Position numbers and translations under genes: made by a program. Positions 4,943 through 36,385 of a DNA stretch of 64,000 nucleotides are shown one piece after another. Source of the DNA: Antedon mediterranea (lineage: Eukaryota > Animalia > Echinodermata); assembly GCF_964355755.1 (NCBI RefSeq), contig NC_092673.1, forward strand, positions 25,045,648 to 25,109,647. Reading direction: 5' to 3'. Below the pieces are notes generated by a model, which saw only the letters and a list, made by a program, of their open reading frames with translations, had not been told where the DNA came from and searched no databases. Numbering within the stretch: position 1 is the stretch's first letter; each line of letters begins with the position of its first letter.

Positions 4943-6012
4943 GTTACTCTTAGTAGGCCTAACCTTCTTTCACAGCAGTCAAAAACAGTGTGTGCTTCAA
5001 TAGGCTAAAACGCTCGAGAAAAAGTCAACTCGAGCGTGCTTTCAAATATATGAAACGCAATCAGTGCCTTATTATTAAGTTCTAAAGGTACACACAACCA
5101 AACTAGGTAGATACAAGAGTGATTACGCATAGTCTGACAAAGGTCATATAAACGGTTAGATGAATAAAACATTTTGGAGCAAAAATATTTTTTCTCTATT
5201 TCTGCTAAAAAAGTAAAAATAAAACACAGAAAAGCGGGTTTGTTAATAACAAAGATCACGGGTCATAAACTCTAGTTTGATGCAGCTTTCCTGCTTTATT
5301 GGAGTAAAATGATCCCGATCCAGATCACGTTGCAGCTAATTTTTTACTCAAAATAAAACCGGGTTTGGTTGGTGATTTTTTGTGTAATGACGTCATTATT
5401 ATCTACTGAAATTTAAAGATTCGATCAAATCAATTATTGTCTTATGCCAGAAAAAAACGTCTCTAACTATACAGGTTAAATCATCACCAATCCACCAATG
5501 CTTAAAGTTTACTTTTAAACAAATTGACCAAATTAAAGATTCATGAAAAAAAAAAATATTAATGAATATAAAAAAATTATTCATAAATCATATATTTAAA
5601 TTATTATTATTATATGCCTTATGTTAAAGGGTTGTTAAGTAGTACAGTTGGTATGATGTAGACAATTGAACTCAAATTGAGTTTATATTGATGGTTATAG
5701 TTAGTAGGTAATGTAACATCAACTATATTAGCAGTGCCATATGTCATACTATTAGCAAAGTTATTATACAACAAGTGGCACTTTTGGGTTAAAACTTAAC
5801 CTGACATTCCACTGGTAAACTAAAAAAAAAAATCGATAACAATGTTGGCCTTCTGAGCCTCTTCCGCAACGACCACCACCTTTCCCCATGGACCTGAGGG
5901 TGTCCGTTTAATATACAACTGTCCTATTCTCTGATGTATCATTAATTTATTCTTTTCGAATTAAAGCATTTTGTTCGTGTTTATAACAACTTAGGAAACA
6001 GTCTTCCATTGC

Positions 6013-6193
6013 CATATGGATGTTTAATAAACACTTTAGTTGATGGTACTACTTCAATAGAATGTTTAGGCTAGAATAAGACCAGGAAAAAACAAAAAAT
6101 TGTGCTCCGAATGCTATATAAACAGCGGCAAAAATGGGAACTGGAGTAGTTTGTGTTTTCAATATTATAGGAAGAGCGGCAATAGCAATCCAG
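6013..6193 (+). promoter_or_regulatory. Gene A promoter and non-coding exon 1
   Basis: CATATG 6013, TAAACAC ~6028, TATATAAA 6115-6122, CAG|GTAAGA donor at 6194; intron 6194-6370 ends in AAACAG four bases before the ATG. Confidence 0.75.
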
Positions 6194-6374
6194 GTAAGAA
6201 CAATTTGTTTTAGTTTTTATTTTAATCCATACAGGACTATATAAAGAAATACACGATATTATAATCATTTTACTTTAATAAATATTTATACTGTACACGT
6301 AATTTGTTGAAATATAATAATTATGATAAGGCCTACTATTGATAGTTTTTTTTAAATATATTTTAAACAGAATC

Positions 6375-9300
6375 ATGTCCTGGATTCGGATCGCCCTGTT
6401 TTCTATTTTAGTTGTATTAGCCGTAAGAGGCCAATCTGTGGAAAATGACCAAAATGACGTCAATTTGGTTTCTCGTCCTGACGTTAATTTGGAGAGAAAA
6501 TCCGACAGTAGACCTGATATCAGCTTGAGTGAAAAAGAGCAACCACTGGTTGCTTCTCCTCCTCTGAATATCATTGATTCTGAAGGAACTGACAAAGTAA
6601 GAGCTTGCTGTAGACGTCGCAGAGTACGTCGATGCAGACGATGTCGCCGCCGATGTCATCGGTGTAGAAGACGACGCTGTCGATGTAGAAGACGAGTAGT
6701 ACGCCGTCGATGTAGAAGACGAGTAGTACGCCGTCGATGTAGAAGACGAATAGTACGCCGTCGATGTAGAAGACGAGTAGTACGTCGCCGTCGATGTAGA
6801 AGACGAAGAGTGTGCTGCCGTTATCGACTGTTCCGACGACGAGGCGCCTACTATCTCCGTATACAATGCGGTAGGCGTGTTCGTGTAGTACGTGTAAGAT
6901 GCCGAAGACGTGGTGGAAGGTTTTATTATTACTTTGGTGGAAGATGGAGGTTAGCTGGAGGAGTACGAAGAATACGCTGCAGCTATCGTCTGTTTAGAAG
7001 AGGAAATGCATATTACCTCCGTATAAAATGCGGTAGGCGTGTTCGTGTAGTACGTGTAAGATGCCGAAGACGTGGTGCAAGGTTTTATTATTACTTTGGT
7101 GGAAGATGGAGGTTAGCTGGAAGATTTAGAGGACGCACTACATACAGAGTGTGTTGGAGAAACAACCGTTTCTACATTCGTATACAATGTGGTAGACGTG
7201 TCCGTTATGTCCGTGTAAACTACAGAAGACGTGGTGGTAGATTGTATTACTATTATGGTGGAAGATGGAGAATTATCACACGCTTCATAAGAAACGGAAA
7301 ATGGGTAAGCTGGCGCCACTTTAGAGTACGCATCACCTACAGAGTATGTTGGAGACACAACCGTTTCTACCTCCGGGTACAACGTGGTAGACGTGTCCGT
7401 TATGTCCGTGTAAACTACAGAAGACGTGGTGGTAGATTGTATTACTATTATGGTGGAAGATGGAGAATTATCACACGCTTCATAAGAAACGGAAAATGGG
7501 TAAGCTGGCGCCACTTTAGAGTACGCATCACCTACAGAGTATGTTGGAGACACAACCGTTTCTACCTCCGGGTACAACGTGGTAGACGTGTCCGTTATGT
7601 CCGTGTAAACTACAGAAGACGTGGTGGTAGATTGTATTACTATTATGGTGGAAGATGGAGAATTATCACCCGCTTCATAAGAAACGGAAGATGGGTAAGC
7701 TGGCGTCACTTTAGAGTACGCATCACCTACCGAGTATGTTGGAGACACAACCGTTTCTACCTCCGGGTACAACGTGGTAGACGTGTCCGTTATGTCCGTG
7801 TAAACTACAGAAGACGTGGTGGTAGATTGTATTACTATTATGGTGGAAGATGGAGAATTATCACCCGCTTCATAAGAAAAGGAAGATGGGTAAGCTGGCG
7901 CCACTTTAGAGTACGCATCACCTACAGAGTATGTTGGAGACACAACCGTTTCTACCTCCGGGTACAACGTGGTAGACGTGTCCGTTATGTCCGTGTAAAC
8001 TACAGAAGACGTGGTGGTAGATTGTATTACCATTATGGTGGAAGATGGAGAATTATCACCCGCTTCATAAGAAACGGAAAATGGGTAAGCTGGCGCCACT
8101 TTAGAGTACGCATCACCTACAGAGTATGTTGGAGACACAACCGTTTCTACCTTCGAGTACAACGTGGTAGACGTGTCCGTTATGTCCGTGTAAACTACAG
8201 AAGACGTGGTGGTAGATTGTATTACCATTATGGTGGAAGATGGAGAATTATCACCCGCTTCATAAGAAACGGAAAATGGGTAAGCTGGCGCCACTTTAGA
8301 GTACGCATCACCTACAGAGTATGTTGGAGACACAACCGTTTCTACCTTCGAGTACAACGTGGTAGACGTGTCCGTTATATCCGTGTAAACTACAGAAGAC
8401 GTGGTGGTAGATTGTATTACTATTATGGTGGAAGATGGAGAATTATCACCCGCTTTATAAGAAAAGGAAGATGGGTAAGCTGGCGTCACTTTAGAGTACG
8501 CATCACCTACAGAGTATGTTGGAGACACAACCGTTTCTACCTCCGGGTACAACGTGGTAGACGTGTCCGTTATGTCCGTGTAAACTACAGAAGACGTGGT
8601 GGTAGATTGTATTACTATTATGGTGGAAGATGGAGAATTATCACCCGCTTCATAAGAAAAGGAAGATGGGTAAGCTGGCGCCACTTTAGAGTACGCGTCA
8701 CCTACAGAGTATGTTGGAGACACAACCGTTTCTACCTCCGGGTACAACGTGGTAGACGTGTCCGTTATGTCCGTGTAAACTACAGAAGACGTGGTGGTAG
8801 ATTGTATTACTATTATGGTGGAAGATGGAGAATTATCACCCGCTTCATAAGAAAAGGAAGATGGGTAAGCTGGCGTCACTTTAGAGTACGCGTCACCTAC
8901 AGAGTATGTTGGAGACACAACCGTTTCTACCTCCGGGTACAACGTGGTAGACGTGTCCGTTATGTCCGTGTAAACTACAGAAGACGTGGTGGTAGATTGT
9001 ATTACTATTATGGTGGAAGATGGAGAATTATCACCCGCTTCATAAGAAAAGGAAGATGGGTAAACTGGCGCCACTTTAGAGTACGCATCACCTACAGAGT
9101 ATGTTGGAGACACAACCGTTTCTACCTTCGAGTACAACGTGGTAGACGTGTCCGTTATGTCCGTGTAAACTACAGAAGACGTGGTGGTAGATTGTATTAC
9201 TATTATGGAGGAAGATGGAGAATTATCACCCGCTTCATAAGAAAAGGAAGATGGGTAAGCTGGCGCCACTTTAGAGTACGCGTCACCTACAGAGTATGTT

Positions 9301-11927
9301 GGAGACACAACCGTTTCTACCTCCGGGTACAACGTGGTAGACGTGTCCGTTATGTCCGTGTAAACTACAGAAGACGTGGTGGTAGATTGTATTACTATTA
9401 TGGAGGAAGATGGAGAATTATCACCCGCTTTATAAGAAAAGGAAGATGGGTAAGCTGGCGGCACTTTAGAGTACGCATCACCTACCGAGTATGTTGGAGA
9501 CACAACCGTTTTTACCTCCGGGTACAACGTGGTAGACGTGTCCGTTATGTCCGTGTAAACTACAGAAGACGTGGTGGTAGATTGTATTACTATTATGGAG
9601 GAAGATGGAGAATTATCACCCGCTTCATAAGAAAAGGAAGATGGGTAAGCTGGCGTCACTTTAGAGTACGCGTCACCTACAGAGTATGTTGGAGACACAA
9701 CCGTTTCTACCTCCGGGTACAACGTGGTAGACGTGTCCGTTATGTCCGTGTAATCTACAGAAGACGTGGTGGTAGATTGTATTACTATTATGGTGGAAGA
9801 TGGAGAATTATCACCCGCTTCATAAGAAAAGGAAGATGGGTAAGCTGGCGTCACTTTAGAGTACGCGTCACCTACAGAGTATGTTGGAGACACAACCGTT
9901 TCTACCTCCGGGTACAACGTGGTAGACGTGTCCGTTATGTCCGTGTAAACTACAGAAGACGTGGTGGTAGATTGTATTACTATTATGGAGGAAGATGGAG
10001 AATTATCACCCGCTTCATAAGAAAAGGAAGATGGGTAAGCTGGCGCCACTTTAGAGTACGCATCACCTACCGAGTATGTTGGAGACACAACCGTTTTTAC
10101 CTCCGGGTACAACGTGGTAGACGTGTCCGTTATGTCCGTGTAAACTACAGAAGACGTGGTGGTAGATTGTATTACTATTATGGAGGAAGATGGAGAATTA
10201 TCACCCGCTTCATAAGAAAAGGAAGATGGGTAAGCTGGCGCCACTTTAGAGTACGCGTCACCTACAGAGTATGTTGGAGACACAACCGTTTCTACCTTCG
10301 AGTACAACGTGGTAGACGTGTCCGTTATGTCCGTGTAAACTACAGAAGACGTGGTGGTAGATTGTATTACTATTATGGAGGAAGATGGAGAATTATCACC
10401 CGCTTCATAAGAAAAGGAAGATGGGTAAGCTGGCGCCACTTTAGAGTACGCGTCACCTACAGAGTATGTTGGAGACACAACCGTTTCTACCTACGGGTAC
10501 AACGTGGTAGACGTGTCCGTTATGTCCGTGTAAACTACAGAAGACGTGGTGGTAGATTGTATTACTATTATGGTGGAAGATGGAGAATTATCACCCGCTT
10601 CATAAGAAACGGAAAATGGGTAAGCTGGCGCCACTTTAGAGTACGCATCACCTACAGAGTATGTTGGAGACACAACCGTTTCTACCTCCGGGTACAACGT
10701 GGTAGACGTGTCCGTTATGTCCGTGTAAACTACAGAAGACGTGGTGGTAGATTGTATTACTATTATGGAGGAAGATGGAGAATTATCACCCGCTTCATAA
10801 GAAAAGGAAGATGGGTAAGCTGGCGCCACTTTAGAGTACGCATCACCTACAGAGTATGTTGGAGACACAACCGTTTCTACCTCCGGGTACAACGTGGTAG
10901 ACGTGTCCGTTATGTCCGTGTAAACTACAGAAGACGGGGTGGTAGATTGTATTACTATTATGGTGGAAGATGGAGAATTATCACCCGCTTCATAAGAAAC
11001 GGAAAATGGATAAGCTGGCGCCACTTTAGAGTACGCATCACCTACAGAGTATGTTGGAGACACAACCGTTTCTACCTTCGAGTACAACGTGGTAGACGTG
11101 TCCGTTATGTCCGTATAAACTACAGAAGACGTGGTGGTAGATTGTATTACTATTATGGAGGAAGATGGAGAATCCTTACCCGCTACAGAATAAACGGAAG
11201 ATGGGTAAGCTGGCGTCACTTTAGAGTACGCACCACCTACAGAGTATGTTGGAGACACAACCGTTTCTACCTCCGGGTACAACGTGGTAGTCGTGTCCGT
11301 TATATCCGTGTAAACTACAGAAGACGTGGTGGTAAATTGTATTACTATTATGGTGGAAGATGGAGAATCTTTACCCGCTACATAAGAAACGGCAAATGGG
11401 TAAGCTACCGATATCGCTTTACACATAACTCTAAAGTATTACAAAGGTATACCATTTGTTGGAGGCACGGCCATTTCTATCTTCAAATAAGATATGGTTT
11501 AAGTACCCGTTATGTCCGTGTAAACTACAGAAGACGTGGTGGTAAATTGTATTACTATTATGGTGGAAGATGGATAATCTTTACCCGCTACAGAAGAAAC
11601 GGTAAATGGGTAAGCTGTTCAAGCTTTCGAGTAAGTAGTTCAAGTCACACAGTTCACCACCACCACTATTACGGCACCCACGTAAGCCACTATCACCACT
11701 ATTCAAGCCACGGCTTCAGCTCAAGCAGCAGCTCAAGTGGAGGGTCCCACGTAATCCACCACTCTTCCAGTCACGGTTCCAGCTCAAGCGGAGGCTTTCA
11801 CAGTTCTGGTGGTTCAAGCTTTTCTTCGGGCGGCAGCGGCGGTGGTCACTCCTCAACTTCGACTCATACCGTTCACACTTCCGGTGGTGGAACGGTCGTC
11901 ACTACAACAACATATCATCACTATTAG
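6375..11927 (+). CDS. Gene A: secreted 1850-aa Arg/Tyr/Trp-rich tandem-repeat protein
   Basis: Real start is ATG 6375 after the acceptor. Signal peptide MSWIRIALFSILVVLAVRG, acidic pro-region, CC + Arg/Cys/Val tract, ~22 65-aa repeats, Ser/Gly/His tail; AATAAA at 12014. Confidence 0.9.
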   Translation: MSWIRIALFSILVVLAVRGQSVENDQNDVNLVSRPDVNLERKSDSRPDISLSEKEQPLVASPPLNIIDSEGTDKVRACCRRRRVRRCRRCRRRCHRCRRRRCRCRRRVVRRRCRRRVVRRRCRRRIVRRRCRRRVVRRRRCRRRRVCCRYRLFRRRGAYYLRIQCGRRVRVVRVRCRRRGGRFYYYFGGRWRLAGGVRRIRCSYRLFRRGNAYYLRIKCGRRVRVVRVRCRRRGARFYYYFGGRWRLAGRFRGRTTYRVCWRNNRFYIRIQCGRRVRYVRVNYRRRGGRLYYYYGGRWRIITRFIRNGKWVSWRHFRVRITYRVCWRHNRFYLRVQRGRRVRYVRVNYRRRGGRLYYYYGGRWRIITRFIRNGKWVSWRHFRVRITYRVCWRHNRFYLRVQRGRRVRYVRVNYRRRGGRLYYYYGGRWRIITRFIRNGRWVSWRHFRVRITYRVCWRHNRFYLRVQRGRRVRYVRVNYRRRGGRLYYYYGGRWRIITRFIRKGRWVSWRHFRVRITYRVCWRHNRFYLRVQRGRRVRYVRVNYRRRGGRLYYHYGGRWRIITRFIRNGKWVSWRHFRVRITYRVCWRHNRFYLRVQRGRRVRYVRVNYRRRGGRLYYHYGGRWRIITRFIRNGKWVSWRHFRVRITYRVCWRHNRFYLRVQRGRRVRYIRVNYRRRGGRLYYYYGGRWRIITRFIRKGRWVSWRHFRVRITYRVCWRHNRFYLRVQRGRRVRYVRVNYRRRGGRLYYYYGGRWRIITRFIRKGRWVSWRHFRVRVTYRVCWRHNRFYLRVQRGRRVRYVRVNYRRRGGRLYYYYGGRWRIITRFIRKGRWVSWRHFRVRVTYRVCWRHNRFYLRVQRGRRVRYVRVNYRRRGGRLYYYYGGRWRIITRFIRKGRWVNWRHFRVRITYRVCWRHNRFYLRVQRGRRVRYVRVNYRRRGGRLYYYYGGRWRIITRFIRKGRWVSWRHFRVRVTYRVCWRHNRFYLRVQRGRRVRYVRVNYRRRGGRLYYYYGGRWRIITRFIRKGRWVSWRHFRVRITYRVCWRHNRFYLRVQRGRRVRYVRVNYRRRGGRLYYYYGGRWRIITRFIRKGRWVSWRHFRVRVTYRVCWRHNRFYLRVQRGRRVRYVRVIYRRRGGRLYYYYGGRWRIITRFIRKGRWVSWRHFRVRVTYRVCWRHNRFYLRVQRGRRVRYVRVNYRRRGGRLYYYYGGRWRIITRFIRKGRWVSWRHFRVRITYRVCWRHNRFYLRVQRGRRVRYVRVNYRRRGGRLYYYYGGRWRIITRFIRKGRWVSWRHFRVRVTYRVCWRHNRFYLRVQRGRRVRYVRVNYRRRGGRLYYYYGGRWRIITRFIRKGRWVSWRHFRVRVTYRVCWRHNRFYLRVQRGRRVRYVRVNYRRRGGRLYYYYGGRWRIITRFIRNGKWVSWRHFRVRITYRVCWRHNRFYLRVQRGRRVRYVRVNYRRRGGRLYYYYGGRWRIITRFIRKGRWVSWRHFRVRITYRVCWRHNRFYLRVQRGRRVRYVRVNYRRRGGRLYYYYGGRWRIITRFIRNGKWISWRHFRVRITYRVCWRHNRFYLRVQRGRRVRYVRINYRRRGGRLYYYYGGRWRILTRYRINGRWVSWRHFRVRTTYRVCWRHNRFYLRVQRGSRVRYIRVNYRRRGGKLYYYYGGRWRIFTRYIRNGKWVSYRYRFTHNSKVLQRYTICWRHGHFYLQIRYGLSTRYVRVNYRRRGGKLYYYYGGRWIIFTRYRRNGKWVSCSSFRVSSSSHTVHHHHYYGTHVSHYHHYSSHGFSSSSSSSGGSHVIHHSSSHGSSSSGGFHSSGGSSFSSGGSGGGHSSTSTHTVHTSGGGTVVTTTTYHHY
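7126..11415 (+). repeat. Coding tandem repeat, 195 bp x 22 (degenerate units on both sides)
   Basis: TTAGAGTACG recurs at 7321, 7516, 8101 ... 11221 (exact multiples of 195); first variant unit at 7126. Confidence 0.95.
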
Positions 11928-12330
11928 GAATCCAGATTTAAAAGATAAGTCATCTATAAATCCAATGTGTTATAGTTGATAAGTAATAATAACGTTGATA
12001 AAATATTAATGCAAATAAATTGATTTATGAAGAATATTAATAATCTTGTTATCATAAATTTTTTCTGCTCTAACCTTTATTATTATCCGATGTTTTTTAT
12101 TAATTAGTATAATTACATCTTTATACAGCAGAACTTTTGTTGTATTATTCCTTTCGAAAATAAAATTAACGCAATATTGTGTCTGTTTACCGATTTTTTA
12201 AATTCAAAACGATGTCTCAATGACATATTTCGTAATACACTCTCTTTTATATTAATATTTATTTAATTATAAATTATAGAAGGCCTAATTTCCATGACTT
12301 TAAGGGCAACTTGATCATTTTAATGTATTA

Positions 12331-14019
12331 GGGATGTACGGACAATCGCGAGATTTACGATGTCGCCGCGCGCGCTCGTCGTACATCCGTCGCCGTAAAT
12401 TACTATGACGTCACAAGTCCATGGAAAAATCTACCTCATGAAATTTCACTGTTGTTAACACAAAAGAGATAGGTACTGTCACTTCAATTGCTAATTTGAC
12501 CTGTATTAAGCTTAAATTTGCCAAAATGTTCAGTCTGGTATTTTGAAGAAACACTTTAATATCCAGATAGGCAAAAGAAACAATAACAAAATTCAACATT
12601 TATATTTTAAAGATTTATTTAAAAGGTTTGTTTACTAGAAATGTTCGCTCTTTGCATGGATTAAAGAATAGAATATTCTTTAATTAATCCATGCTCTTTG
12701 CGAGACTTGTCTATCGACCCACGAGGTAGCTGGAAGTATGACGTATATGATGACGCGTTGGAATCACTCAAAACGTTCCGATCCTCTGTAGTGGCGTGAC
12801 ACACGACGGTCGTCGATGTGTGGCGGCGACTCTGCATCATCCTATTGATATGCCTCCACTAGGGCGCCTATGCCTAGCCTCCTAGGCCTCGGCTAAGCTA
12901 CCTACACTACTAGCTAGGTATCAAGTCGGTCTGTATGAACGCCTAAATTCATGAACTTTTAAAATTTACTCACCATCGTCTTTGAATACAAGAGTTTAGG
13001 CCGGTGGAGAACTATAAACACCATCGTCTTTATTCACCGAAAATCACCGCGATCGTCGCGTATTAAAAAATAAATATTTCTTACAAAAAACGCTGCTCCT
13101 GCTCGCTTATTGAAAATTATTTTTTATTTCAAATGTTTTTTAATGTGTCATTTTATTGTCACATAATAGTTATTTTACCGGAAAAAAATGTAATTTCAAG
13201 CAACAAATACTTAAATTGTCTGTCAGACAATGGTTTTTGGGTTTCTTTTCTTTTTTTATATGTGAATAAATATTATATTTTTGTTACAGAAGTGAATACT
13301 CAATTTCTGTCACTTTAGTTAATTTTATTGCTAAGGTCAAATCTGGGGGTCACTTCATCACCCTAGATATTTCAATTGTGAAGTATCCTATTACAAACAC
13401 AAACTTTAATGGACTGTTTCGATAATAATTCAATGAATATCTGACAGTGAATATACCAGAAATGCTTAGGGATTTGTAATTTAGCATGACATGTCCTAAT
13501 AGACTCTTTCCCAGACGTTTTTTGGGTCTACTGTGAATCAATAAATTATAGTAGAGTTTCCATTTTCACAAAACTGTCTGTCCTTAGAACTATAACTGCT
13601 GTTTGCTTTAGCTTCTGATTGAGTAGTCCTAATGGGACGTAGCGGGCTAGAGCAGCAGCGTGAAAAGTTTTAAGTGCGATATGGTTGAAAGATTCCAGAG
13701 CATCATACGTCATGTTTCTAGCTGTTTCGGGTCAATAGACAAGTCTGGCAAATCGTGAATATTTTTAGTAAACACAATTTTTAAATAAATCGTAAAAATA
13801 TAAATGTTGAATTTATTTATTGTTTCTTCAAAATACCAGACAAATTTTATACAGGTTAAATTGACGGTGCCTATCTCTTGTATGCATTTTTAACAACAGT
13901 GAAAACTCATGATGTAGATATTATTTTGCCATGCACTTGTGATGTCACAGCAACGGTACGTCGAGCCCGCGCGGCGATATTGTAAATCTCACGATTGTTC
14001 TGAAATGAATGTACAACCC
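12331..14019. mobile_element. Degenerate non-autonomous TIR DNA element (~1.7 kb)
   Basis: Left end GGGATGTAC..ACAATCGCGAGATTTACGATGTCGCCGCGCG is the inverse of the right end CGCGCGGCGATATTGTAAATCTCACGATTGT..GTACAACCC. Diverged arms run several hundred bp; TTA/TAA flanks. Right-arm fragments recur at ~26185-26335 and ~43550-43700. Confidence 0.65.
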
Positions 14020-14372: not shown

Positions 14373-14954
14373 ATTCGATATAGCATTATTTTCAGCCAAA
14401 TCTAACAACCTGTTTATTAACGCATGCTCACATACCGTCCTCTAATATAGCCAAAAATACGTATACCCTAATACTGTATTTGTTGCTTACATCAGCATTT
14501 TTCCGATCACTGGGCCATCTCCAATTTAATATTTAATATAAATATGTAACTTATAGAAACCGCCTCTTCAATTTGAATTAAAATCATACTGTATCCATTA
14601 GGTGGTTTGTACTTCGTTATAACGTACGTACATTACACAATCGTAATTATTTAACTTTTATGTTAAAAGAAGTGTTCACATCCTATCCAAACACTTTACT
14701 CACAATGTCAATAATATATGAAATTTAAAAAAAAATGTCATTTAATAACAAAAGTTTATGCAAACATTTTTAAAGGTTTTACGGTATTTTATGAATACAA
14801 TACAGAAACAGTTGACACAAACATAAATGTCGTATATGAAACACATACTAAACATGACCAATGAACAGACAAAAATGTTAAAATTGAATATGATGAACGA
14901 GTCCATGATACTGATTATCTCCCATATAACTTACGGGGCACCGTAAATTAACAT

Positions 14955-15210
14955 GATAATAACATATATAACGCATATAATGTTTGAAACATCTAAGCGC
15001 TGAACATTATTACCCCAGTCATTTTTTGGGATCAAAAACGTACGGTAACATAATGCATCTAGTAATCAGCGCAAAGTTGTGTCTAGATCTAACCGGGTAC
15101 CCATTAAACACCTGGGTGGAGAGAGGCAAACGTAAGTAAATTATCTTGCCTAAGGATACAAGCAATGTAGCGAGAGTTGGATTATTCGAACCTCGATCTC
15201 TCCAACGTCG
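14955..15210 (-). mobile_element. tRNA-derived SINE relic
   Basis: Minus strand shows B-box GGTTCGAAT, CCTTAGGCAAG, CTCTCCACCCAGGTGTTTAATGGGTACC core and an AGCGCTTAGA..TATTAT tail. Internally deleted copies at ~37025-37205 and ~51640-51825. Confidence 0.6.
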
Positions 15211-15467
15211 AACATTTGTTAGGTTTTTTGTTGTTGTTGTAATCGTATCTATCGTTATTGTTTTGCATACATTATATTAGAGAAACAAATTAATTTCTTC
15301 ACTGTGTATAAAGATCATTGTAGTAGTAAACCATTGCCTACCGACAGATGTCGATGGCGCAATGCTATAAGGACCAACTCTTAAACAAAATTATATACTA
15401 GTGTACTATCTATTGTTTCAATATTTCTATTCATTTACCGATAACTAATTATAATTATATTGTCAAC

Positions 15468-15852: not shown

Positions 15853-17325
15853 ATGTCTTGGTTTCGGCTTGCCCTAACCGCTATTTTAGTTGTGTCGGCC
15901 TTAAGCGGCGAAACAGTAGAAAATGACAGAGAGAACGTTAACTCGGTTTCCCATCCTGAAATTAATCTGGAGAGTAAATCCGACAATCAATATGTTATCA
16001 GCTTGAGTGAAAAAGAGCAACCACTGGTAGTTTCCTCTTCTCAGAATATAATTAAATCTTACCACCAACACAATCGATTTAGAGTACGACATCATCGAAG
16101 TACATACTATGGTCTCAGCTTAAGTGAAAAAGAACAAAGACTGGCAGATTCCCTTCCTCAGAACATAATTAAATCTGAGGGAGCTGACAAAGTATTAGCT
16201 TGTTGTAGACATCGCAGATACCGCCACCACTACCATCACTATCACCATATCCACTACCACCACCACTATCATATTCACCACCACCACCACATCCACCATC
16301 ACTACATCCACCACTATCATGTCCATCACTACCACATCCACCACCACCACTATAACATTCACCACCATCACTACCACCACCACTATCATGTCTACCACCG
16401 CCATCGATTTAGAAGACGACGTCATCGACGTACAACCTATGGTCTCAGCTTAAGACAAAAACAACAAAGTCTGGCAGATTCCTTTCCTCAGAACACGATT
16501 AAATCTGAGGGAGCTGACAAAGTATCAGCTTGTTGTAGACGTCACAGAGTTCGTTGTAGACGATGCCACTACCACATCCACATTCACCACCACTACCACA
16601 TTCACCACCACTTCCACCATCACTACCACCGCCACCACCACCGGTGTCGTCGATATAGAAGACGACACCGTCGACGTAGAAGACGTATAGCACGCCGCCA
16701 ACGTAGAAGGCGAAGAAAACTCCGTCGCCGTAGAAGACGAATGGCACGCCGTCAACGTAGAAGACGAAGACGACATCATCGACGTAGAAAACGAATGGCA
16801 CGTCGTCAACGTAGAAGACGAAGACGACAGCATCGGCGTAGAAGACGAATTGCACGCCGTCAACGTAGAAGACGAAGACGACACCATCGACGTAGCAGAC
16901 GAATGGCACATCGTCTACATAGAAGACGAAGACGACAGCATCGGCGTAGAAGACGAATAGCACGCCGTCAACGTAGAAGACGAAGACGACACCATCGACG
17001 TAGAAGACGAATAGCACGCCGTCAAAATAGAAGACGAAGACGACACAATCGACGTAGAAAACGAATAGCACGCCGTCAACGTAGAAGACGAAGACGACAC
17101 TGTCGACGTAGAAGACGGATAGCACGCCGTCTACGTAGAAGAGGAGTATATTGGAGACACAACCATTTCTACATTCGAGTACTATGTGGTAGACATGCTC
17201 ATTATGTTAGCATAAACTCCAGGAGACGTGGTGGTAGATTGTTTTATTTTTATGGTGGAAAATGGAGATTTTTTACTCGCTACAGAAGAAAAGGAATATG
17301 GATAACCTGCCCAAGATCAGGTTAA
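15853..17325 (+). CDS. Gene B: secreted 490-aa His-rich / poly-Arg protein
   Basis: ATG after TTTCAG AACT. Signal peptide MSWFRLALTAILVVSALSG, two spacer+CC-His modules, 8 x 18-aa Arg repeat, one C-terminal copy of the 65-aa-type domain. Confidence 0.88.
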   Translation: MSWFRLALTAILVVSALSGETVENDRENVNSVSHPEINLESKSDNQYVISLSEKEQPLVVSSSQNIIKSYHQHNRFRVRHHRSTYYGLSLSEKEQRLADSLPQNIIKSEGADKVLACCRHRRYRHHYHHYHHIHYHHHYHIHHHHHIHHHYIHHYHVHHYHIHHHHYNIHHHHYHHHYHVYHRHRFRRRRHRRTTYGLSLRQKQQSLADSFPQNTIKSEGADKVSACCRRHRVRCRRCHYHIHIHHHYHIHHHFHHHYHRHHHRCRRYRRRHRRRRRRIARRQRRRRRKLRRRRRRMARRQRRRRRRHHRRRKRMARRQRRRRRRQHRRRRRIARRQRRRRRRHHRRSRRMAHRLHRRRRRQHRRRRRIARRQRRRRRRHHRRRRRIARRQNRRRRRHNRRRKRIARRQRRRRRRHCRRRRRIARRLRRRGVYWRHNHFYIRVLCGRHAHYVSINSRRRGGRLFYFYGGKWRFFTRYRRKGIWITCPRSG

Positions 17326-20300
17326 ACTGCAAGATGAATTTTCTTTTTAATTCAAAACTACCGATATAAATAAAATGTGCATTGAGTAAAATTACCGATA
17401 ACATTATTCTCTGTACATAATCAATGTTATACAAATTACATTCTCTTATTGAATAATAAATCTAAATACGAATATTATCACTAATCTTTTATTGTTTTAA
17501 CTCGTTTTGTTGTCTGACCAGTTTTATCCTTATGCTGATTATCCTGTTTACAGTTGTAGTGAATTGATAAACATTATTACACTACAAATCTATATTTAGA
17601 GTAACCATGAGGTGATTTTGGTATTGACACAGAGGGACAGGTGTAAGGTCCTATTGTTTTTTAAAACTATAATTGGCTGAATCACGATTTAAAAGAATAT
17701 GTGTGGTTTAATCATTTACAGTACCCAAATGACTGCAATTTAATTGTTAAGTTCAAAGTATGGAGCCTGCAAAGTAATATTTTCATTAAAGTAGAGTGTT
17801 CGGACTGTTTTGTTAATTATCAGTAACATTAAATCAATCAGTGTGTCCAAAGCAAAAGTTGAAATGGACTAAGGGTATGTTCAGACCTACGGAGTTATGC
17901 TTTCGTATCACAGCCAAGGTCATATTTTAATGAGCGTCGTAAGAGCAAAGTGTTCAGATTCATTGCAACGAAGTTGCGTTACAAACGGATATGATGTCAC
18001 TCGCTGGCGATTAATCAAACTCTAACGCACGCATAGACCTACCTTCGTTGTTATTAAAAGTAGTAGTGGTTGGTTTAGGAGTTACAGGCCTAGACCAAAC
18101 ACTTGGGCTCGGCATTATCGATTGGTTGTCAGGCATACCAACCAGCCGATCGTTTTGGGGTTTGGGTTTATATTTGGTCTATGACCTAAAATATCATTTA
18201 TGGCAGAAAAATGTTCAAATCCCGTACTTGCACCGGCTCCAGATTTATTTACTCGGTCTTTCACCGCTATACGACGACCCCTTCAATTTCGTTTGGATAT
18301 TAAATCCTTCTTTAATATGAGGATGGCATGACTTGGTTATACTGATGGGTGTGATAAATGTTTATTTATTAGTTCCGTGACCGTAAGAATAACGACTTTT
18401 GCATAAATTATTCGATAATTCTATTTAATTGAATATTCTATAAGTTTGAGAGAATTGTTTGTAGAGTATAAATCGACTAGGACTCTTGCCTTTCCAGTGA
18501 GAAACGTCGATTTGACTTCGTTCGCTGCGTAACCAGATATTGTATAATCACCTACACTTTAATTGGTTGATTTCGTATCACATGCGGCTAACTATTAGTT
18601 CTCCATGTTAAAAGTTATATTTACCTCGCCAAGGAGTTTATGTTTAATGGTTCTTTACAGGCAGCTTTTTATAGAAATGTTTAGATTCTTGTGATACGAG
18701 AGGCTGGTAACTTTTGCGCGCTATAAAGACAACATGTAGTGCCGTTAATAACTATTTCTAATCATCCCTGGCCAAAATTGAAGGGATACACTTTTTAATG
18801 TCATAGACTTCGACATGGATTAAAGATGGAAAATCGGTGTAATTGAATAACAGTTTACTTTCGACCAGCAGGTGTTTGAAAAACAACTAATTTTTTTAAT
18901 TCATTGAAATCGGTTTCCATTTGTGCATACTTTTATTTTGATTTGTAATGCATGATATGGACATTCGTAATGTCCCTTTAATCAACTTGTATTGTCTTTT
19001 AAATTGTGATTTTATAAACGAATAAAAAAAGTTACACGTGAGTGTGGGGGTCAGTGAGTGAGCATACACATGCGCGACAAAAGGCTGCTTGTCATATATA
19101 TTTCATATTTTCGCCATTCCACTCAAAAACATTCATTATCTGTACCATTCCACTCAAAAACATTCATTACAATATACGTTACAATTCGGTACAATCTGTT
19201 CCCTAAAATGGTATATTTATATATTTCTTTCAGAACCATGTCTTGGTTTCGGCTTGCACTGACCGCTATTTTAGTTGTGTCGGCCTTAAGCGGCGAAACA
19301 GTGGAAAATGACAGAGAGAAAGTTAACTCGGTTTCTCATCCTGAAATTAATTTGGAGAGTAAATCCTACAATCAACATGTTATCAGTTTGAGTGAAAAAG
19401 AACAACCATTGGTAGTTTCCTCTTCTCAGAATATAATTGATTCTGAAGGAACTGACAAAGTAAGAGCTTGCTGTAGACGTCGCAGAGTACGTCGATGCAG
19501 ACGATGCCGCCGCCGATGTCGTCGGTGTAGAAGACGACGCTGTCGATGTAGAAGACGAGTAGTACGCCGTCGATGTAGAAGACGAGTAGTACGCCGTCGA
19601 TGTAGAAGACGAGTAGTACGCCGTCGATGTAGAAGACGAAGAGTGTGCTGTCGTTATCGACTGTTCCGACGACGAGGCGCCTACTATCTCCATATAAAAT
19701 GTGGTAGGCGTGTTCGTGTAGTACGTGTAAGATGCCGAAGACGTGGTGCAAGGTTTTATTATTACTTTGGTGGAAGATGGAGGTTAGCTGGAGGACTAAG
19801 AGTACGCACCACGTACAGAGTATGTTGGAGAAACAACCGTTTCTACCTTCGAGTACAATGTGGTAGACGTGTCCGTTATGTCCGTGTAAACTACAAAAGA
19901 CGTGGTGGTAGACTGTATTACTATTATGGTGGAAGATGTAGAATTATCACCCGCTACAGAATACACGGAAGATGGGTAAGCTGGCGTCATTTTAGAGAAC
20001 CCATTACCTATAGAGTGTGTTGGAGACACAACCGTTTTTACCTCCGGGTACAACGTGGTAGACGTGTCCGTTATGTCCGTGTAAACTACAGAAGACGGCG
20101 TGGTAGATTGTATTACTTTATGGTGGACGATGGAGAATTATCATCCGATACATAAGAAACGGAAGATGGGTAAGCTGGCGTCACTTTAGAGTACCCATCA
20201 CCTATAGAGTGTGTTGGAGACACAACCGTTTCTACCTTCGAGTACAATGTTGTAAACGTGTCCGTTATGTCCGTGTAAACTACAGAAGACGGCGTGGTAG

Positions 20301-21341
20301 ATTGTATTACTATTATGGTGGAAGATGGAGAATTATCACCCGCTACAGAATAAACGGAAGATGGGTAAGCTGGCGTCACTTTAGAGTACCCATCACTTAC
20401 ACAGAGTTTGCTGGAGACACAACCGTTTCTACCTTCGAGTACAACGTGGTAGACGTGTCCGTTATGTCGGTATAAACTACAGAAGACGTCGTGGTAGATT
20501 GTATTACTATTATGGTGGAAGATGGAGAAATATCACCCGCTACAGAATAAACGGAAGATGGGTAAGCTGGCGTCACTTTAGAGTACCCATCACTTACAGA
20601 GTGTGCTGGAGACACAACCGTTTCTACCGTCGAGTACAGCGTGGTAGACGTGTCCGTTATGTGGGTGTAAACTACAGAAGACGTCGTGGTAGATTGTATT
20701 ACTATTATGGAGGAAGATGGAGAATTATCACCCGCTACATAAGAAAAGGAAGATGGGTAAGCTGGCGTCACTTTAGAGTACTCATCACCTATAGAGTGTG
20801 TTGTAGACACAACCGTTTCTACCACGTCCACCACTATCACATTCACCACCAACACTACCACCACCACTATCATGTCCACCACCGCCATCGATTTAGAAGA
20901 CGACGTCGTCGAAGTACATACTGTGGTCTCAGCTTAAATGAAAAAGAACAAAGACTGGCAGATTCCCTTCCTCAGAACATAATTAAATCTGAAGGAGCTG
21001 ACAAAGTATTAGCTTGTTGTAGACGTCGCAGACACCACCACCGCCACCACCAACACTTCGGCTTCCATCTCCAAATTCACCACCACTACCAATACAATGG
21101 TCTCAGCTTAAGTGAAAATGAACAAAGCCTGGCAGATTCTCTTCCTCAGAACATAATTAAATCTGAAAGAGCTGACAAAGTATTAGCTAGTTGCAGATGT
21201 GGCAGATTACGTAGAAGACGAAGACGGCATAGAAGACGAATAGCACGCCGTCAACGTAGAAGACGAAGACGAAACCGTCGACGTAGAAGACGGATAGCAC
21301 GCCGTCTACGTAGAAGACGAGTATATTGGAGACACAACCAT

Positions 21342-24300
21342 TAGTCCAAGAGCATTAGTTCATAAGTATAGGCAGACCCGGACATTTCTGGTAACAAGCT
21401 AATTTTTTCAGGAAAGGTCCAGAACTATGATTGGAACATCATACTAAAAGTCCTGAAAAATCCTCCTTGTGCTCTCCGAGAAATTCAAGATGGCGTCCAA
21501 AATGGTTGCCATTTTAATTAGTCTATAACTTTGTAACCGCTTGTCGTAGAGTATTGATTTTGGTGTCAAATAGTTCACAGTATATACATTCCTATTTGCT
21601 CTAACAGAAAATTTTGTAAAAAAATGGCTGCTACTACAGTTTCTGGTAGTATGACCTTTGACCTGGTCTTATCATATCTCGGTAATGGCTTGTCATAGAG
21701 AATTAAGATTAGGCCCAAATTGTTCAGAACATGCATATTTATATTTGGTGTAATAAAATATTTTATCTCAAAATGACCGGAAGTGAGGTTATTGACCTCT
21801 TATTGACCTATTCAAATATATTTTACCGTATCTCAAGAAATATTTACCGTATAACGTTACTTTTGGTGTCAAATTGTTTGGAACATATACATTTCTATTT
21901 AGTCTAATACAAAAGTTTTCCCTAAAATGCTCGGAAGTAAGTTAAATTATTGAACATTTTAAAAATCAAAGAGCTGCATAGGCAGAGTATATGAATACTG
22001 TAGATAAAATCAAAAACAACATTTTAACTCTGCCTTAAAACATGTTTTTGGCGTAGTACATCATCAGGTAAAGTGAATTGTTACAAAAAGAAAATATAAA
22101 GTCAATAAATTACAAAGAACAACTGTCAGTGGCTAATCAAAGTTGGTTAAGTAAGCAAAAGACAATTGGAAAATAGCTATGTACATGGCACATATCCGGA
22201 TTGTAAAAAACAAATGTCAAAGACCCTTTATCTGCAATACGATGTCGGTTGGTAAACACTAACTCATATTCATATTTTTTCGTTATTTTTACACTGGATG
22301 TTAATACTTGGAGGCAAATATAAATGTTTTTAAACATTTTTCAAATTTTTTTAACATTTTCAGCAATTTCGGTCGGTTGGTCAGTTAGTAAACACTAACT
22401 CATATTCATATTTTTCCGTTATTTTGACACTCGATATTAATATGTTTTTAAACATTTTAAAACATTTTTAAACATTTTCAGCAATTTCGGTTAGTCGGTC
22501 GGTCGGTAAAGACTAACTCATATTCATATTTTTTCGTTATTTTGACAGTGGATATTAATACTTGGAGGAAAATATACATGTTTTAAAATTTTATCAACAT
22601 TTTCAAACATTTCCACCAATTTCGGTCGGTTGGTCGGTCGGTAGGTTGGTCGGTAGTTCAGTAAACAATAACTCAAATTTGCACACGCGCATGCAGCCAT
22701 GTATATGGACTGACTTATTAAAAATAATGCATTTTGAAACATTACTTGTTTTAAATGTTCGTTATATGGTTTATTTATGAAAAAAAGAGAATGTACCCTA
22801 GGTATTTCGCATCAAACACCCTTTACCAAGCATGCATAGACTTTTTTTTCAGATTCAGATTTTATTTGGTACTTGTGGAAATCCATGAAAAAATAGATTG
22901 AAAGACGCAGGCAATGATCCCGGTACCTCTACTAAGTGAGTGCTCTATCATTTGAGCTAGTCCCCCAGTTACATATTTAACTGTTTAAAGATGAAAAAAT
23001 GATCGCCATTTGCCTTTTATAGGATTTATTATATATTGAAAATAATGCAAAATAAGGGTCTTTAAATCTCTGTAACATTGATCAGCAGCATTCTGTTACA
23101 GTCATTCATCATCTGATGTTGCATCTTCAACAACTTGGTGTTTGTTGCTTTTTTCACATCATTATCATGTTCATCTGTAGGTGTTGTTGCATGTTTGCCC
23201 AAAACAGTTATGACGTTAATTTGTTTTCATCTTTAAACAGTTAAAAGGTGAAAGTCTAGGCTTGCCAGTTAGAGAACATTCAAGGGTGCATTCTCTTTTA
23301 AAACAAGGAATGACCTGGTTTCCTGTTTTAAAATACATTATTTTTACAAATAAAATGGTCTTTACATTTGTTTCTGACAATCCTGAGTATAATATATGCC
23401 ATGTACATACTGTAGTGTTTGCCAATTGGGCATTTTCATGCGAAATGTATATGACCTGAACATTTCATTTTCACAGTATCATAAAGTCTATACATTTCCT
23501 AATTACATAAAAGTTATACTTTTATGAACAAAAATAATAAAATAACAAAAACAACGACGTGATTTCAACAAAGCACTAATTCGCGTATATAACGTGAGTT
23601 AAAGACGAATAAAGCATTTAAAATGTATTCATGACATCTACATATGGGTGACATTTTGCAGCAATAACATTTCAACCATAACTAGTATGAGAATTTACGT
23701 TTCCCTGTTTTTAGTTCATGTCCATTTTTTGTAACAAGTGTTACCGATATTCTTTGTTCTATCAAAGTAAAATTTACCCTCAAGGTTATCGTTGAAAACA
23801 ACAAAACACTCTTCAACTACCCAATAAAATGTAACGCTTGTTGTGGAATAACACTTTTTTTTTTTAAATTAACCAACTTAGTTATTGACTATGCAGCTCT
23901 TTGATTTGTTTAATTTTTAATAATTTAATTTACTTTCGAGTATTTTAGGGCAAAATGTTGTATTAGACCAAATAGAAATGTATATGTTCCAAACAATTTG
24001 ACACCAAAAGTAACGCTATACGATAAATATTTCTTGAGATACGGTAAAAGATATATGAATAGGTCAATAAGAGGTCAATAACCTCACTTCCGGTCATTTT
24101 GGGATAAAATATTTCATTACACCAAATAAAAATATGCATGTTCTGAACAATTTGGGCCTAATCCCAATTTTCTATGATAAGCCATTACCGAGATATGATA
24201 ATACCAGGTCAAAGGTCAAACTGCCAGAAACTGCAGTAGCGACCATTTTTTGACAAAATTTTCTGTTAGAGTAAATAGGAATGTATATATCGTGAACTAT

Positions 24301-24517
24301 TTGACACCAAAATCAATACTCTACGACAAGCGGTTACAAAGTTATAGACTAATTAAAATGGCAGCCATTTTGGACGCAATCTTGAATTTCTCGGAGAGCA
24401 CAAGGAGGATTTTTCAGGACTTTTAGTATGATGTTCCAATCATAGTTCTGGACCTTTCCTGAAAAAATTAGCTTGTTACCAGAAATGTCCGGGTCAAACC
24501 CTAATGCTCTTGGACTA
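21342..24517. mobile_element. Non-autonomous DNA transposon with ~640-bp TIRs (Academ-like termini)
   Basis: Ends TAGTCCAAGAGCATTAG / CTAATGCTCTTGGACTA; CAT duplicated at 21339-21341 and 24518-24520; paralogue D reads AACCATTACTAC (empty site). Arms ~21342-21981 and ~23889-24517. Confidence 0.85.
22899..22966 (-). pseudogene. tRNA-Ala-derived relic inside the transposon
   Basis: GGGGGACTAGCTCAAATGATAGAGCACTCACTTAGTA-----GAGGTACCGGGATCATTGCCTGCGTCTTTCA aligns by eye to metazoan tRNA-Ala(AGC), with a 5-nt anticodon-arm deletion and several transitions. Confidence 0.7.
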
Positions 24518-26337
24518 CATTACTACCTTCGAGTACTATGTGGTGGACACGCTCATTATGTTAGCATAAATTCCAGAAGACGTGGAGGTAGATTGTATTA
24601 TTTTATGGTGGAAGATGGAGAATCTTTACCCGGTACAGAAGAAACGGAATATGGATAACTTGCCCAAGATCAGGTTAAACTGCAAGATGATAGGTTTTAC
24701 CTTTGAATCTTCTTTTTAATTGAAAACTACCGATATAAATAAAATGTGCATTGAGTAAAATTACCGATATAATATTAGAAAGAAGTCTATTATAGAAAAT
24801 ATTGACTAATAAATCTAAATACAAATATTATCACAAATCTGTTGTCATTGTTTTAACTCGTTCGTAGTTTAACCATGCCTCCGTCGCCTAATTGCCTATA
24901 CCAGGGAAGAGTTTAACTCTTCCCTGCCTATACTAAGTTTTGTTGTCTGACCAGTTTTATCCTTATGCTAATGTTTACTATACAAACACGTATAAGAACA
25001 TTCATTCACAAAACAGTAATGATCCAAGATAAATGGAATGCTAATAAACAAATTAATTGTCATCAATTACCTAACCTCCGGAATATCTATAACGTTTTTT
25101 GATTCATTGAAATAAACCCAATGGTTGAACTTTTTTTTAAAGACAGAATAGAACAGACACCTGAATAAAGTCATAACGAAGTACATTAGATTTGAACTCG
25201 CCACAGTTAGGACACAGTTCAATGCATTGTCGATCGAATTACGATACTGACTGACAAGTTTACGAACACATTTCTATCATTATCTATTGGTAAACACAAA
25301 AGCATCGGGCCCAACATCGATCGTTTTCTCTACTCTCGACTATTATGCTTGAACGGAAGCATTTAAAGTATTTAATAAATCAACTGAAGCCAGGATATTT
25401 TTTTATGATTACTGTTGACAACTTGTATTTACTAGTAATAAATTTAAAATCATTTACGCATGCGTCATGCCGAAATCGGGAACAGAGATTATTCGACTGA
25501 TTATTATTTTCAGAAAATATTTGGCAAATTATGCCATAGTACAACTACACCCTGGACACCCACACCTCTAGGACAAATGCCCACATACTGTTCATCGTGG
25601 TAACCATGTTATTTTATCTATTACTGATATTACTTTGTTTTTCTTTTTTGTACGAAAGAAAATCTTAAGACCGACTAGAACAACCCCACGTGAAAGCCAA
25701 CAGCGCCGCCTGTTGTTTTTGCGACCATTTTGGCCATAAACTATACTATTATATTCTAAATCGCACTCGATCGTCGACGGAACTAACATTTTTGGAGAAC
25801 AAAATGCAGTAATTTAGACCAAAAACAAAAAAAGCACTTAAATTTTGATTAATTAATGGGAACAACTCTTCAAGACGTAGAATCGTTGGAAGAATTGTAA
25901 TTTACATCGCTGCCTTTCTAGCATAGGCCAACAAAGCTAGTTGTTGTCGTGGTTTTATGCAGGATCCTTGTTATCAGTTGTATTGCAAATATGATGTAAT
26001 TGATGACTAAATAAATGTGGAATAAATGAAAATGAAATGAAATGGAAGAAATGTAATTGGCCAAGATCAGTTTCATTTTCCTGGCGTAATCTACATCGCT
26101 GCCTATCTAGCATAAGCAAACCAAGCTAGTTTTTTGTCGTAGTTTATGGCTCTAACCCAATGCTTATATGTATCATCATCACATATCTCTTGTATTTATT
26201 TTTAATAAAAGTGAAAACTCTTGAGGTAGATTTTATTTTGCCATGCACAGAAATTTACGGCGACGGCTGTACGACGAGCGCGCGCGGCGATATTTTAAAT
26301 CTCGCGATTGTTCTGAAAAGGACTGTACATCCTTAAT

Positions 26338-27181
26338 TTATAAAATTATAAATAAAATATAATTTAAAAAAATTAATGAATTTATACTATCTGTTGGTCA
26401 TGACCGATATGTGTTTATTTTGCTGCATTATTTCAAAGAATAATATTCTTCCCTTAACTCTAATATGAAAGCAATACCAAAACGGTCTAATTAAAGATAA
26501 AAACGCTTTTTAATTTGTATTTATTTTCAAGGAAAGCAAGAATTAAAAAGATAAAATTGTTAAAAGAAAATTTTTGTTAATTGATAACGTATGTATAAAA
26601 AAAAATATAAGTATAATTAATGTATAAGATTATAAAAGAAAGGAAATGTATTAATGATGACATGTATAAAAATTAATTAAAGATAAAAACGCATCTTAAT
26701 TGTATTTATGAAAAAATTGTTTAAAGAGAAAACAAAATTGTGTTAATTGATAACGCAGGTATAAATAAAGGTATATAAGATTAAAAAAGAAAGAAAATGC
26801 ATTAACGTTAACATGTATAAAAATTAATTAAAGATAAAAACGCATTTTAAGTTGTATTTATTTTCAAGCAAAAGTAAAAATTAAAAATATAAAAATGTTA
26901 AAAAGAAAAAAAAATTGTTAATTGATAATGTATGTACAAAGAATATAAGTATAATTAATATATAAGATTATAAAATAAATGAAATGCATTGATGATGACA
27001 TGTAAAAAAAATAGAAAATAATTATGGTGAATAATGATAATAGGTATAGAAACAAATACAAAAATCATTAGTAATTCAAACAGATGATAACAAAAATGCA
27101 ATTGTATAAATGTATATTACTGTTTTTATATGATGTTTGTTTGAAATAAAAGTGGGATGCTCCCACATAAAGAAAAAAAAA
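26338..27181 (+). mobile_element. 5'-truncated non-LTR retroelement tail (AT-rich 3' UTR + polyA); second copy 43703-49150 is interrupted by the LINE
   Basis: Ends AATAAAAGTGGGATGCTCCCACATAAAG(A)n. 14-bp TSD TGTACATCCTTAAT at 26324/27182 (1 mismatch) and perfect at 43689/49151. Confidence 0.7.
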
Positions 27182-34376: not shown

Positions 34377-34415
34377 TTCTCGGTCCAGTTGTCCTTTAAC
34401 ATGATTTCGTTACAT

Positions 34416-35020
34416 GATGATGACATGAATTAGAAGATGGTGTAATATATAAGCATGTAAATGAAATGGTATGTACATCCCTAATACGTTGTTAAAATGT
34501 GGTTCTCGGTCAAGTTTTCCTTCAAAATTATTTCGTTAAATATATCCCAGAAATGATGACGTGAATTAGGAGATGGTGTAATATATAAGCATGTAAATGA
34601 AATGGTATGTACATCCCTAATACGTTGTTAAAATGTGGTTCTCGGTCAAGTTTTCCTTCAACATTATTTCGTTAAATATATCCCAGAAATGATGACGTGA
34701 ATTAGGAGATGGTGTAATATATAAGCATGTAAATGAAATGGTATGTACATCCCTAATACGTTGTTAAAATGTGGTTCTCGGTCAAGTTTTCCTTCAACAT
34801 TATTTCGTTAAATATATCCAAGAAATGATGACATGAATTAGGAGATGGTGTAATATATAAGCATGTAAATGAACTGGTATGTAGGCCTACATCCCTAATA
34901 CGTTGTTAAAATTTGGTTCTCGGTCAAGTTTTCCTTCAACATTATTTCGTTAAATATATCCCAGAAATGATGACATGAATTAGGAGATGGTGTAATATAA
35001 TTATAAGCATGTAAATGAAA
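34416..35020. repeat. 136-bp minisatellite, ~4.5 copies
   Basis: RTGAATTAGGAGATGG at 34561, 34697, 34833 (136-bp period). Confidence 0.9.
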
Positions 35021-36206: not shown

Positions 36207-36385
36207 AGCGTGGTTCCCACTAGCGACGCAACACAAGGACGTAACGCAATGCAATTGAATTGACCAATCACAAGCGATGGCTTATTCGCTTGTGATTGCT
36301 AACTGTCTATAACTTCGCTTGTCATTGGTTAAAACGCTTGCGTTGCGTTTACGTCATTGCGTTACGTTCTAGTGGGAACCAAGCT
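36207..36385. mobile_element. 179-bp MITE (PIF/Harbinger-like) nested in a related older MITE
   Basis: TIR AGCGTGGTTCCCACTAG / CTAGTGGGAACCAAGCT with TAA/TCA flanks; absent from the duplicate at ~51004 (GCAACGTAAGTGATGG). Confidence 0.75.

Follow-up and report, generated by a model that had tools for sequence, protein, structure and literature searches.

Secreted orphan proteins rich in repeats are already known in invertebrates, and the class itself is not new. The adhesive proteins of sea cucumbers are described as orphans with long tandem repeats that are predicted to be all-beta (PMC10120082). Through cation-pi contacts, recombinant polycationic MFP-1 is reported to self-coacervate once salt reaches or exceeds the seawater level, sandcastle-worm cement to combine polycationic Lys/His/Gly/Tyr proteins with the polyanionic Pc-3, and His-rich proteins to harden jaws and beaks (PMC9999432). 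In the flatworm Macrostomum, two-thirds of the cohesive protein Mlig-ap1 is described as Lys/Arg-rich repeats (PMC8621496). Sea urchin SpTransformer genes, as described, are <2 kb long, carry the leader on exon 1, and encode a disordered protein with a Gly-rich region, an RGD motif, and a His-rich region (PMC5491942); arenicin-type polychaete peptides are described with a BRICHOS pro-domain of ∼100 residues (PMC10608444). Here, we describe g1, a gene at positions 6375 to 11927 of a 64,000-nt stretch of Antedon mediterranea contig NC_092673.1 (the window), together with five paralogs, g2 to g6; all lie on the + strand. g1 is an animal gene whose product is dominated by a 65-aa Arg/aromatic repeat. 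Its repeat domain and gene family are real and apparently undescribed, and they fall within a known kind, that of lineage-restricted repetitive secreted proteins.

The g1 coding sequence is a single 5.5-kb exon within an open reading frame (ORF) of 6339 to 11927, whose sole Met is at 6375, and specifies 1,850 aa (∼240 kDa) with a net charge, counted as R+K−D−E, of +570. From the N terminus, the product comprises a signal-like segment, a pro-segment, an Arg/Cys block, 25 repeat units, and a Ser/His/Gly tail. Residues 1 to 19 (6375 to 6431), conserved in six paralogs, likely form a signal peptide: the best 11-aa hydropathy is 3.13 at residue 6, compared with 1.23 beyond residue 25. Because this is the sole hydrophobic stretch of the protein, the product is likely secreted rather than membrane anchored. 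The acidic pro-segment (residues 20 to 75; 6432 to 6599; 56 aa, net −6) contains all 12 Asp and Glu residues. The last of these is D73, and the next 1,777 residues lack Asp, Glu, and Pro, confirming an earlier note, made from the sequence alone, that no acidic residue follows the pro-region. None of the 1,776 codons after the acidic part is GAN (7.6% expected from base composition), versus 357 GAN codons in the +1 frame of the same stretch. Next come the Arg/Cys block (6600 to 6812; 71 aa, 66% Arg, 17% Cys), encoded by a 27-nt repeat, and two 54-aa units (6807 to 7124, starting at 6807 and 6969) that are without the last hairpin and have extra Cys. These are followed by 22 tandem 65-aa units (7125 to 11414), a divergent last unit with two Cys (11415 to 11618), and, up to and including the stop codon, a tail of 102 aa rich in Ser, His, Gly, and Thr (11619 to 11927; 34% Ser, 20% His, 17% Gly).

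The flanks of g1 carry putative signals of gene expression. A TATA-like box lies at 6115 to 6122, and a matching element is found 288 nt before the ATG of g2. A likely intron in the 5′ untranslated region (6194 to 6370; GT..AG, 177 nt) would end 4 nt before the ATG; its donor is at 6194, and six of six paralogs have an AT-rich acceptor immediately before the ATG. Downstream, a likely poly(A) signal, AATAAA, is at 12159 to 12164, and a second AATAAA is at 12014.

Tandem Repeats Finder describes the array, which is in frame inside the ORF, as 23.0 copies of a 195-nt period at 7125 to 11617 (96% matches, 0% indels). The repeat region begins upstream of the start given in the earlier note, with the two 54-aa units. 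In total, g1 has 25 units (two of 54 aa, 22 of 65 aa, and one divergent last unit), a count that is as assembled; summed read depth across the array gives no copy number. The 20 core units (7320 to 11219) each contain 20 or 21 Arg, 7 to 9 Tyr, 4 Trp, 2 or 3 Phe, and 1 Cys, in agreement with the ∼20, 8, 4, 3, and 1 counted earlier; the first unit has two Cys, and the Cys position varies from unit to unit. The array is 33% Arg plus Lys and 23% Tyr, Trp, and Phe, and one 65-residue unit has a charge of +21 and no acidic residue. There are three [RK]R pairs per unit, compared with 6.9 in shuffles (p = 0.03). The alternation of Arg and hydrophobic residues that the earlier note read into the strands was not borne out, either over the whole unit (polar/nonpolar alternation of 34 versus 32.7 in shuffles; p = 0.47) or inside predicted strands (23 of 38 versus 19.1; p = 0.13). 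It is visible by eye solely in the first three strands, where, in the register of the model described below, V8, W10, F15, L17, V19, V28, and V30 would lie on one face and R7, C9, R11, R14, Y16, R18, Y27, and R29 on the other.

AlphaFold2, given 15 aligned rows from window paralogs, predicted one unit, like those throughout the 22-unit array, as an 8-strand antiparallel beta meander, with a predicted local distance difference test score (pLDDT) of 87.9 to 88.7 in five of five models and a predicted template modeling score (pTM) of 0.67. Its HN, GR, GG, GG, and NG turns (H12-N13, G22-R23, G36-G37, G44-G45, and N56-G57) match those named from the letters beforehand, and all six Gly of the unit fall within predicted turns. 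Three units, modeled from a single sequence, repeated the same eight strands, with a best pLDDT of 74.9 and a pTM of 0.35, and therefore without fixed packing between units; a one-unit homodimer prediction, with a score of 0.01, speaks neither for nor against pairing. The proposal of a folded beta-domain array is thus supported by prediction for one and three units, and the picture that it gives of the g1 repeats is one of beta domains strung like beads, whose surface would display Arg and Tyr/Trp. The fold search suggested along with the modeling was also run: Foldseek found nothing above background with one unit (best E, 0.31) or with three (best E, 0.0012, but template modeling score of 0.13), nor did VIA (best Z, 3.2, with a root mean square deviation of 2.2 over 52 aligned residues, and 3.9, with 5.5 over 59). 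Matches of the three-unit model were confined to single units, and the candidate solved folds compared (Kelch, choline-binding repeat, lipocalin, Fn1, and PUR repeat) gave weak matches only. This absence of a match to the predicted all-beta unit falls short of proving a new fold.

The g1 repeats are under purifying selection. Among 19 internal units, there are 11 distinct synonymous and 8 nonsynonymous variants, with 130 and 455, respectively, being possible (ratio, 0.21; p = 0.0008). With every one of the 22 units counted, the figures are 17 and 25 (ratio, 0.42; p = 0.006). Read in the five other frames, 3 to 8 of 19 variants are synonymous, including 4 of 19 in the frame of an antisense ORF. 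When a g1 unit is compared with the g4/g5 terminal unit, the ratio of nonsynonymous to synonymous substitution rates (dN/dS) is 0.30, and other in-register pairs with the g4/g5 terminal unit give 0.26 to 0.73, the g3a row being left out as one residue out of register. The g1 units are ∼98% identical, and identity is no lower at greater distance, as expected from homogenization.

Evidence on transcription comes from sequencing runs X1, X2, X3, and X5. No run is recorded as RNA; X1, from a separate study, was taken to be RNA by guess, and X2, X3, and X5 are DNA-like, with even depth across intergenic sequence. A 377-nt contig of X1, with a single difference, spans 11783 to 12159, the single-copy 3′ end of g1, at a depth of 2,157, and its end coincides with the AATAAA at 12159; five listed intergenic pieces of this run have depths of 3 to 21. 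The same interval has depths of 54, 35, and 27 in X2, X3, and X5, compared with single-copy depths of 42 to 50, 23 to 36, and 20 to 26. X1 does not cover 5890 to 6411 and has solely a paralog-like contig at 6467 to 6721, which is uninformative either way. With the RNA status of X1 guessed, its depth is a good hint, not proof, that g1 is transcribed. Contigs of the DNA-like runs span both flanks of the g1 array. Four of four runs compared also contain an extra g1-like N terminus with no window match within 2 mismatches, which makes it a further paralog or an allele.

In collections that were mainly microbial, the repeat has no credible relative in Pfam, solved-structure sequences, large protein sets, metagenome contigs, or fold searches, and the description of it as unrecognized stands. 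Pfam gave no credible family for the full g1 protein or residues 1 to 250, matched 1 of 15 unit members (E, 0.38), and matched none of the six family N termini. Two Pfam candidates, SAF (E, 8.8e-08) and Dynein_IC2 for g6, were rejected because each is a sum over repeats in which no stretch passes alone. Among solved-structure sequences, in a library without chains under 20 residues, the best E was 0.1 (PUR-alpha). The large protein sets were searched with g1 unit and N-terminal queries, the His-rich cargo of the paralogs being left out. A word-based search with two units against the longer proteins of 5.8 billion returned 12 candidates, all of them above an E of 0.01. One with g1 residues 1 to 445 returned no relative in the best 7,981 candidates; exact look-up of 10 translations found none. 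A profile search of 1.84 billion representatives gave one match, P0159, which is spurious: it is an unrelated repetitive ORF in which 17 residues were matched seven times (hhalign probability, 23%). In metagenome contigs, none of 214 pattern matches to the unit query and none of 134 to the N-terminus query was confirmed. The ESM Atlas, queried by features, had no usable match, which is evidence for neither absence nor novelty. No published description of the family was found in the literature covered, outside which lie most subscription journals.

The earlier note overlooked the cluster of five related genes. These have the same signal and pro-segment, at 45 to 68% identity to g1. g2 (15853 to 17325; 490 aa) is His and Arg rich, and its one terminal unit carries a Cys pair. 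g3 (19238 to 21344) is a broken paralog with a g1-like start, units, and a His-rich part; its frame changes near 20120 and 20395, and it is cut at 21342. A terminal-unit relic at 24518 to 24660 is likely the g3 3′ end, lying past an inverted-repeat insertion. Where g3 breaks off, 610-nt inverted arms (21375 to 21984 and 23886 to 24495; 94% complementary) are found, likely a DNA transposon insertion, and the 3′ end resumes at 24518. g4 (38992 to 42078; 1,028 aa, 30% His) and g5 (53598 to 57377; 1,259 aa, 31% His) are His-rich polyproteins with 9 and 11 internal pro-segments, respectively, and one terminal unit each. Their conserved pro-segment ends in CC ahead of each cargo, which is His/Tyr/Ile. 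g6 (62503 to 64000), open at the window end, has the same signal followed by ∼20 acidic 24-aa pro-segment repeats (a 72-nt repeat in 19.3 copies), with 129 Asp/Glu versus 40 Lys/Arg, a net charge of −85, and an isoelectric point of 4.1.

The terminal units of g2, g4, and g5 are without the g1 Cys and have two other Cys 41 residues apart; these single-copy units with a Cys pair of their own suggest that the whole unit is the module. The cluster displays a reshuffling of modules, which has given polycations, His-rich polyproteins, and also a polyanion, all with a common pro-segment. With one pro-segment for 25 units and no spacers, g1 is the least polyprotein-like member by the family's own grammar. 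The suggestion of a polyprotein precursor is weaker for g1, and its architecture is found instead in two paralogs: the multipeptide-precursor layout, with a spacer and a convertase site per cargo, is present in g4 and g5 and absent from g1.

The window around these genes is AT rich and gene poor, with an observed/expected CpG ratio of 0.92 outside ORFs. Inside the cluster, 27217 to 34376 is a near-perfect palindrome of ∼7.1 kb (nested arms at 27217 to 30731 and 30904 to 34376, 94 to 100% complementary, with a 172-nt loop), which may be a foldback element or an inverted duplication. Segmental duplications relate 34373 to 41800 to 49178 to 56490 (93 to 97%) and 24518 to 27143 to 41917 to 44508 (95%), and contain 4.4 tandem copies of a 136-bp repeat. 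An intact 1,266-aa endonuclease-reverse transcriptase ORF of a long interspersed nuclear element, with zf-RVT, occupies 44624 to 48424; at least 120 homologues are 39 to 61% identical, and the best full-length ones are 47 to 49% identical over the region searched. High-copy interspersed repeats lie at 13020 to 13660 and 14940 to 15260, where the summed depth in DNA-like runs is in the tens of thousands versus 25 to 54 for single-copy sequence; Rfam has no matches, these two repeats included. The 8-mer TAGGCCTA occurs 24 times outside the family ORFs, compared with 0.4 times expected from base composition.

We favor the reading of g1 as an intact polycationic glue- or coat-forming part of a cosecreted extracellular material, set by cation-pi and charge pairing, and give it an even chance of being right. 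The cation-pi adhesive proposed in the earlier note fits the composition of the array and the presence of His-rich and acidic paralogs. An intact array is favored because a lone pro-segment serves all 25 units of g1, which have no spacers between them, whereas the pro-segment and polybasic site recur 9 times in g4 and 11 times in g5; the scarcity of [RK]R pairs relative to shuffles also favors it. We infer every functional step. Signal and pro-segment would be cut from the product, and its Arg would bind polymers or surfaces of negative charge, with the acidic product of g6 as a possible partner. Cation-pi contacts between Arg and aromatic residues would then condense the chains after salt screens charge, and Cys, possibly with His-metal or oxidized-Tyr links, would cure the material; inter-unit disulfides, as suggested earlier, are possible. 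In a broader form, the cluster might be a complete complex-coacervate kit shuffled from one ancestral gene, in which a polycationic chain of beta domains with a new fold (g1), His-rich metal-binding polyproteins (g2, g4, and g5), and a polyanion derived by amplification of the charge-masking pro-segment (g6) are cosecreted as an underwater glue or coat; we consider this unlikely.

Several points weigh against a glue or coat. The RNA status of X1 is guessed, contig depth is unsuited to ranking genes, and coexpression of g1 with g2 to g6 is only presumed. The pLDDT of 88.7 was reached with close paralogs as the aligned sequences, without a shuffled control, and just one of five single-sequence models of three units exceeds a pLDDT of 60, the other four being at 42 to 60. 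In every unit, one R-X-[RK]-R site and one RRR site lie close to predicted turns. The seawater setting is assumed. In addition, antimicrobial precursors, as described in PMC10608444, typically have a signal followed by a short anionic pro-segment, occur in clusters, and contain hairpins that are cationic.

An antimicrobial or antifouling family is the main alternative and a serious one, though somewhat unlikely: g1 would act whole, as a microbe-binding polycation, or be cut at RGRR/RRR into hairpins, and g4 and g5 would release His-rich peptides. The predicted unit does contain cationic aromatic hairpins, R34-R35 is invariant in 15 of 15 aligned units and adjoins a predicted turn, and R-X-X-R lies ahead of 9 of 9 internal pro-segments in g4 and 10 of 11 in g5; marine antimicrobial peptides are described as having short neutralizing anionic propeptides and clustered precursor genes (PMC10608444). 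However, there is no spacer between g1 units, RGRR precedes Val and is absent from the last g1 unit and from the g2, g4, and g5 terminal units, and the units are homogenized and under purifying rather than diversifying selection. Protegrin and tachyplesin are short mature hairpins with four Cys in two disulfides, and the pro-domain of protegrin is cathelin. The g1 unit, with one Cys per 65 aa, has no such pair of disulfides and cannot staple a hairpin in that way. Pfam detects no BRICHOS, cathelin, or defensin family: cathelin is absent from the full protein, residues 1 to 250, and the six N termini (the pro-segment being 56 aa), and BRICHOS from g1 and the six N termini. The likeness of RGGRL to protegrin, raised in the earlier note, is weak, arising in 0.15% of shuffles of one unit before allowing for many comparable motifs, and membership with protegrin, arenicin, and tachyplesin fails on the features compared. 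Material and antimicrobial roles of the family could coexist.

Two further explanations concern what kind of product, if any, the array makes. A secreted polyanion-binding condenser, not a load-bearing glue, would use the Arg/Cys block and the repeats to cross-link acidic mucus, the coat of eggs or sperm, or particles. The net charge of +570 and a protamine-like block of 66% Arg and 17% Cys behind a signal peptide speak for it, yet it leaves the His-rich polyproteins and the conserved hydrophobic face (V8 to V30) unexplained, and we regard it as decidedly improbable. That g1 is a nonfunctional tandem repeat or an assembly artifact, open by chance, is very improbable and already largely refuted. 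The ∼98% identity of the units, the broken paralog g3, and the 1,121-aa antisense ORF are what such an origin might leave, but the synonymous excess is confined to the sense frame, the gene anatomy is complete, the units differ at many sites, and the flanks are recovered in contigs of DNA-like runs.

Among known systems, the COOLP-type sea cucumber adhesives are, like g1, described as having no known domain, mostly long tandem repeats, and predicted serial antiparallel beta-sheets; three of four COOLP genes have neighboring gene numbers, and g1 likewise sits in a cluster. Their repeats are described as 33 to 46 aa long and predicted to form continuous cross-beta, whereas g1 units are 65 aa long and predicted to be separate domains. 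The shared feature, orphan long tandem repeats predicted to be all-beta, is a likeness of kind, not homology. Three short g1-family motifs are absent from four COOLP supplement text files, the COOLP repeats being otherwise compared by description. The g1 family resembles mussel foot proteins and the Pc-1 to Pc-5 cement proteins of the sandcastle worm in its polycationic, Tyr-rich, and His-rich secreted proteins and, on our reading, in pairing with a polyanion and in cation-pi condensation (PMC9999432, PMC12817120). As described there, those glue proteins consist mostly of short-motif repeats that bear 3,4-dihydroxyphenylalanine (DOPA) or phosphoserine, and we found no sequence relation to g1. 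Unlike in sandcastle-worm cement, the polyanion of the g1 cluster is Glu/Asp rich and homologous to the pro-segment. Mlig-ap1 is, like g1, very large and secreted, with repeats rich in Lys/Arg (PMC8621496), but it is described as having a core of known binding domains and low-complexity repeats, whereas in g1 the unit is predicted to fold and no known domain is present.

The sea urchin SpTransformer genes are likewise described as tightly clustered where repeats are dense, and as encoding secreted proteins rich in His and in repeats (PMC5491942). Membership fails on the features compared: the g1 family has one coding exon of 1.5 to 5.5 kb, and g1 itself is free of Asp beyond residue 73 and has no N-terminal Gly-rich region. 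Protegrin, arenicin, and tachyplesin share with the g1 unit Arg/aromatic hairpins and cation-pi stabilization (PMC10608444, with the protegrin features taken from general background); such peptides are described as short and disulfide stapled, with small precursors, in contrast to a 65-aa unit with one Cys. Most cationic glue proteins are short-motif repeats, whereas the g1 unit is predicted to fold stably without an acidic residue. If confirmed, it would offer a small, makeable scaffold for tests of cation-pi adhesion or antimicrobial action, and the cluster would be a clear case of opposite-charge biomaterial partners arising from one gene.
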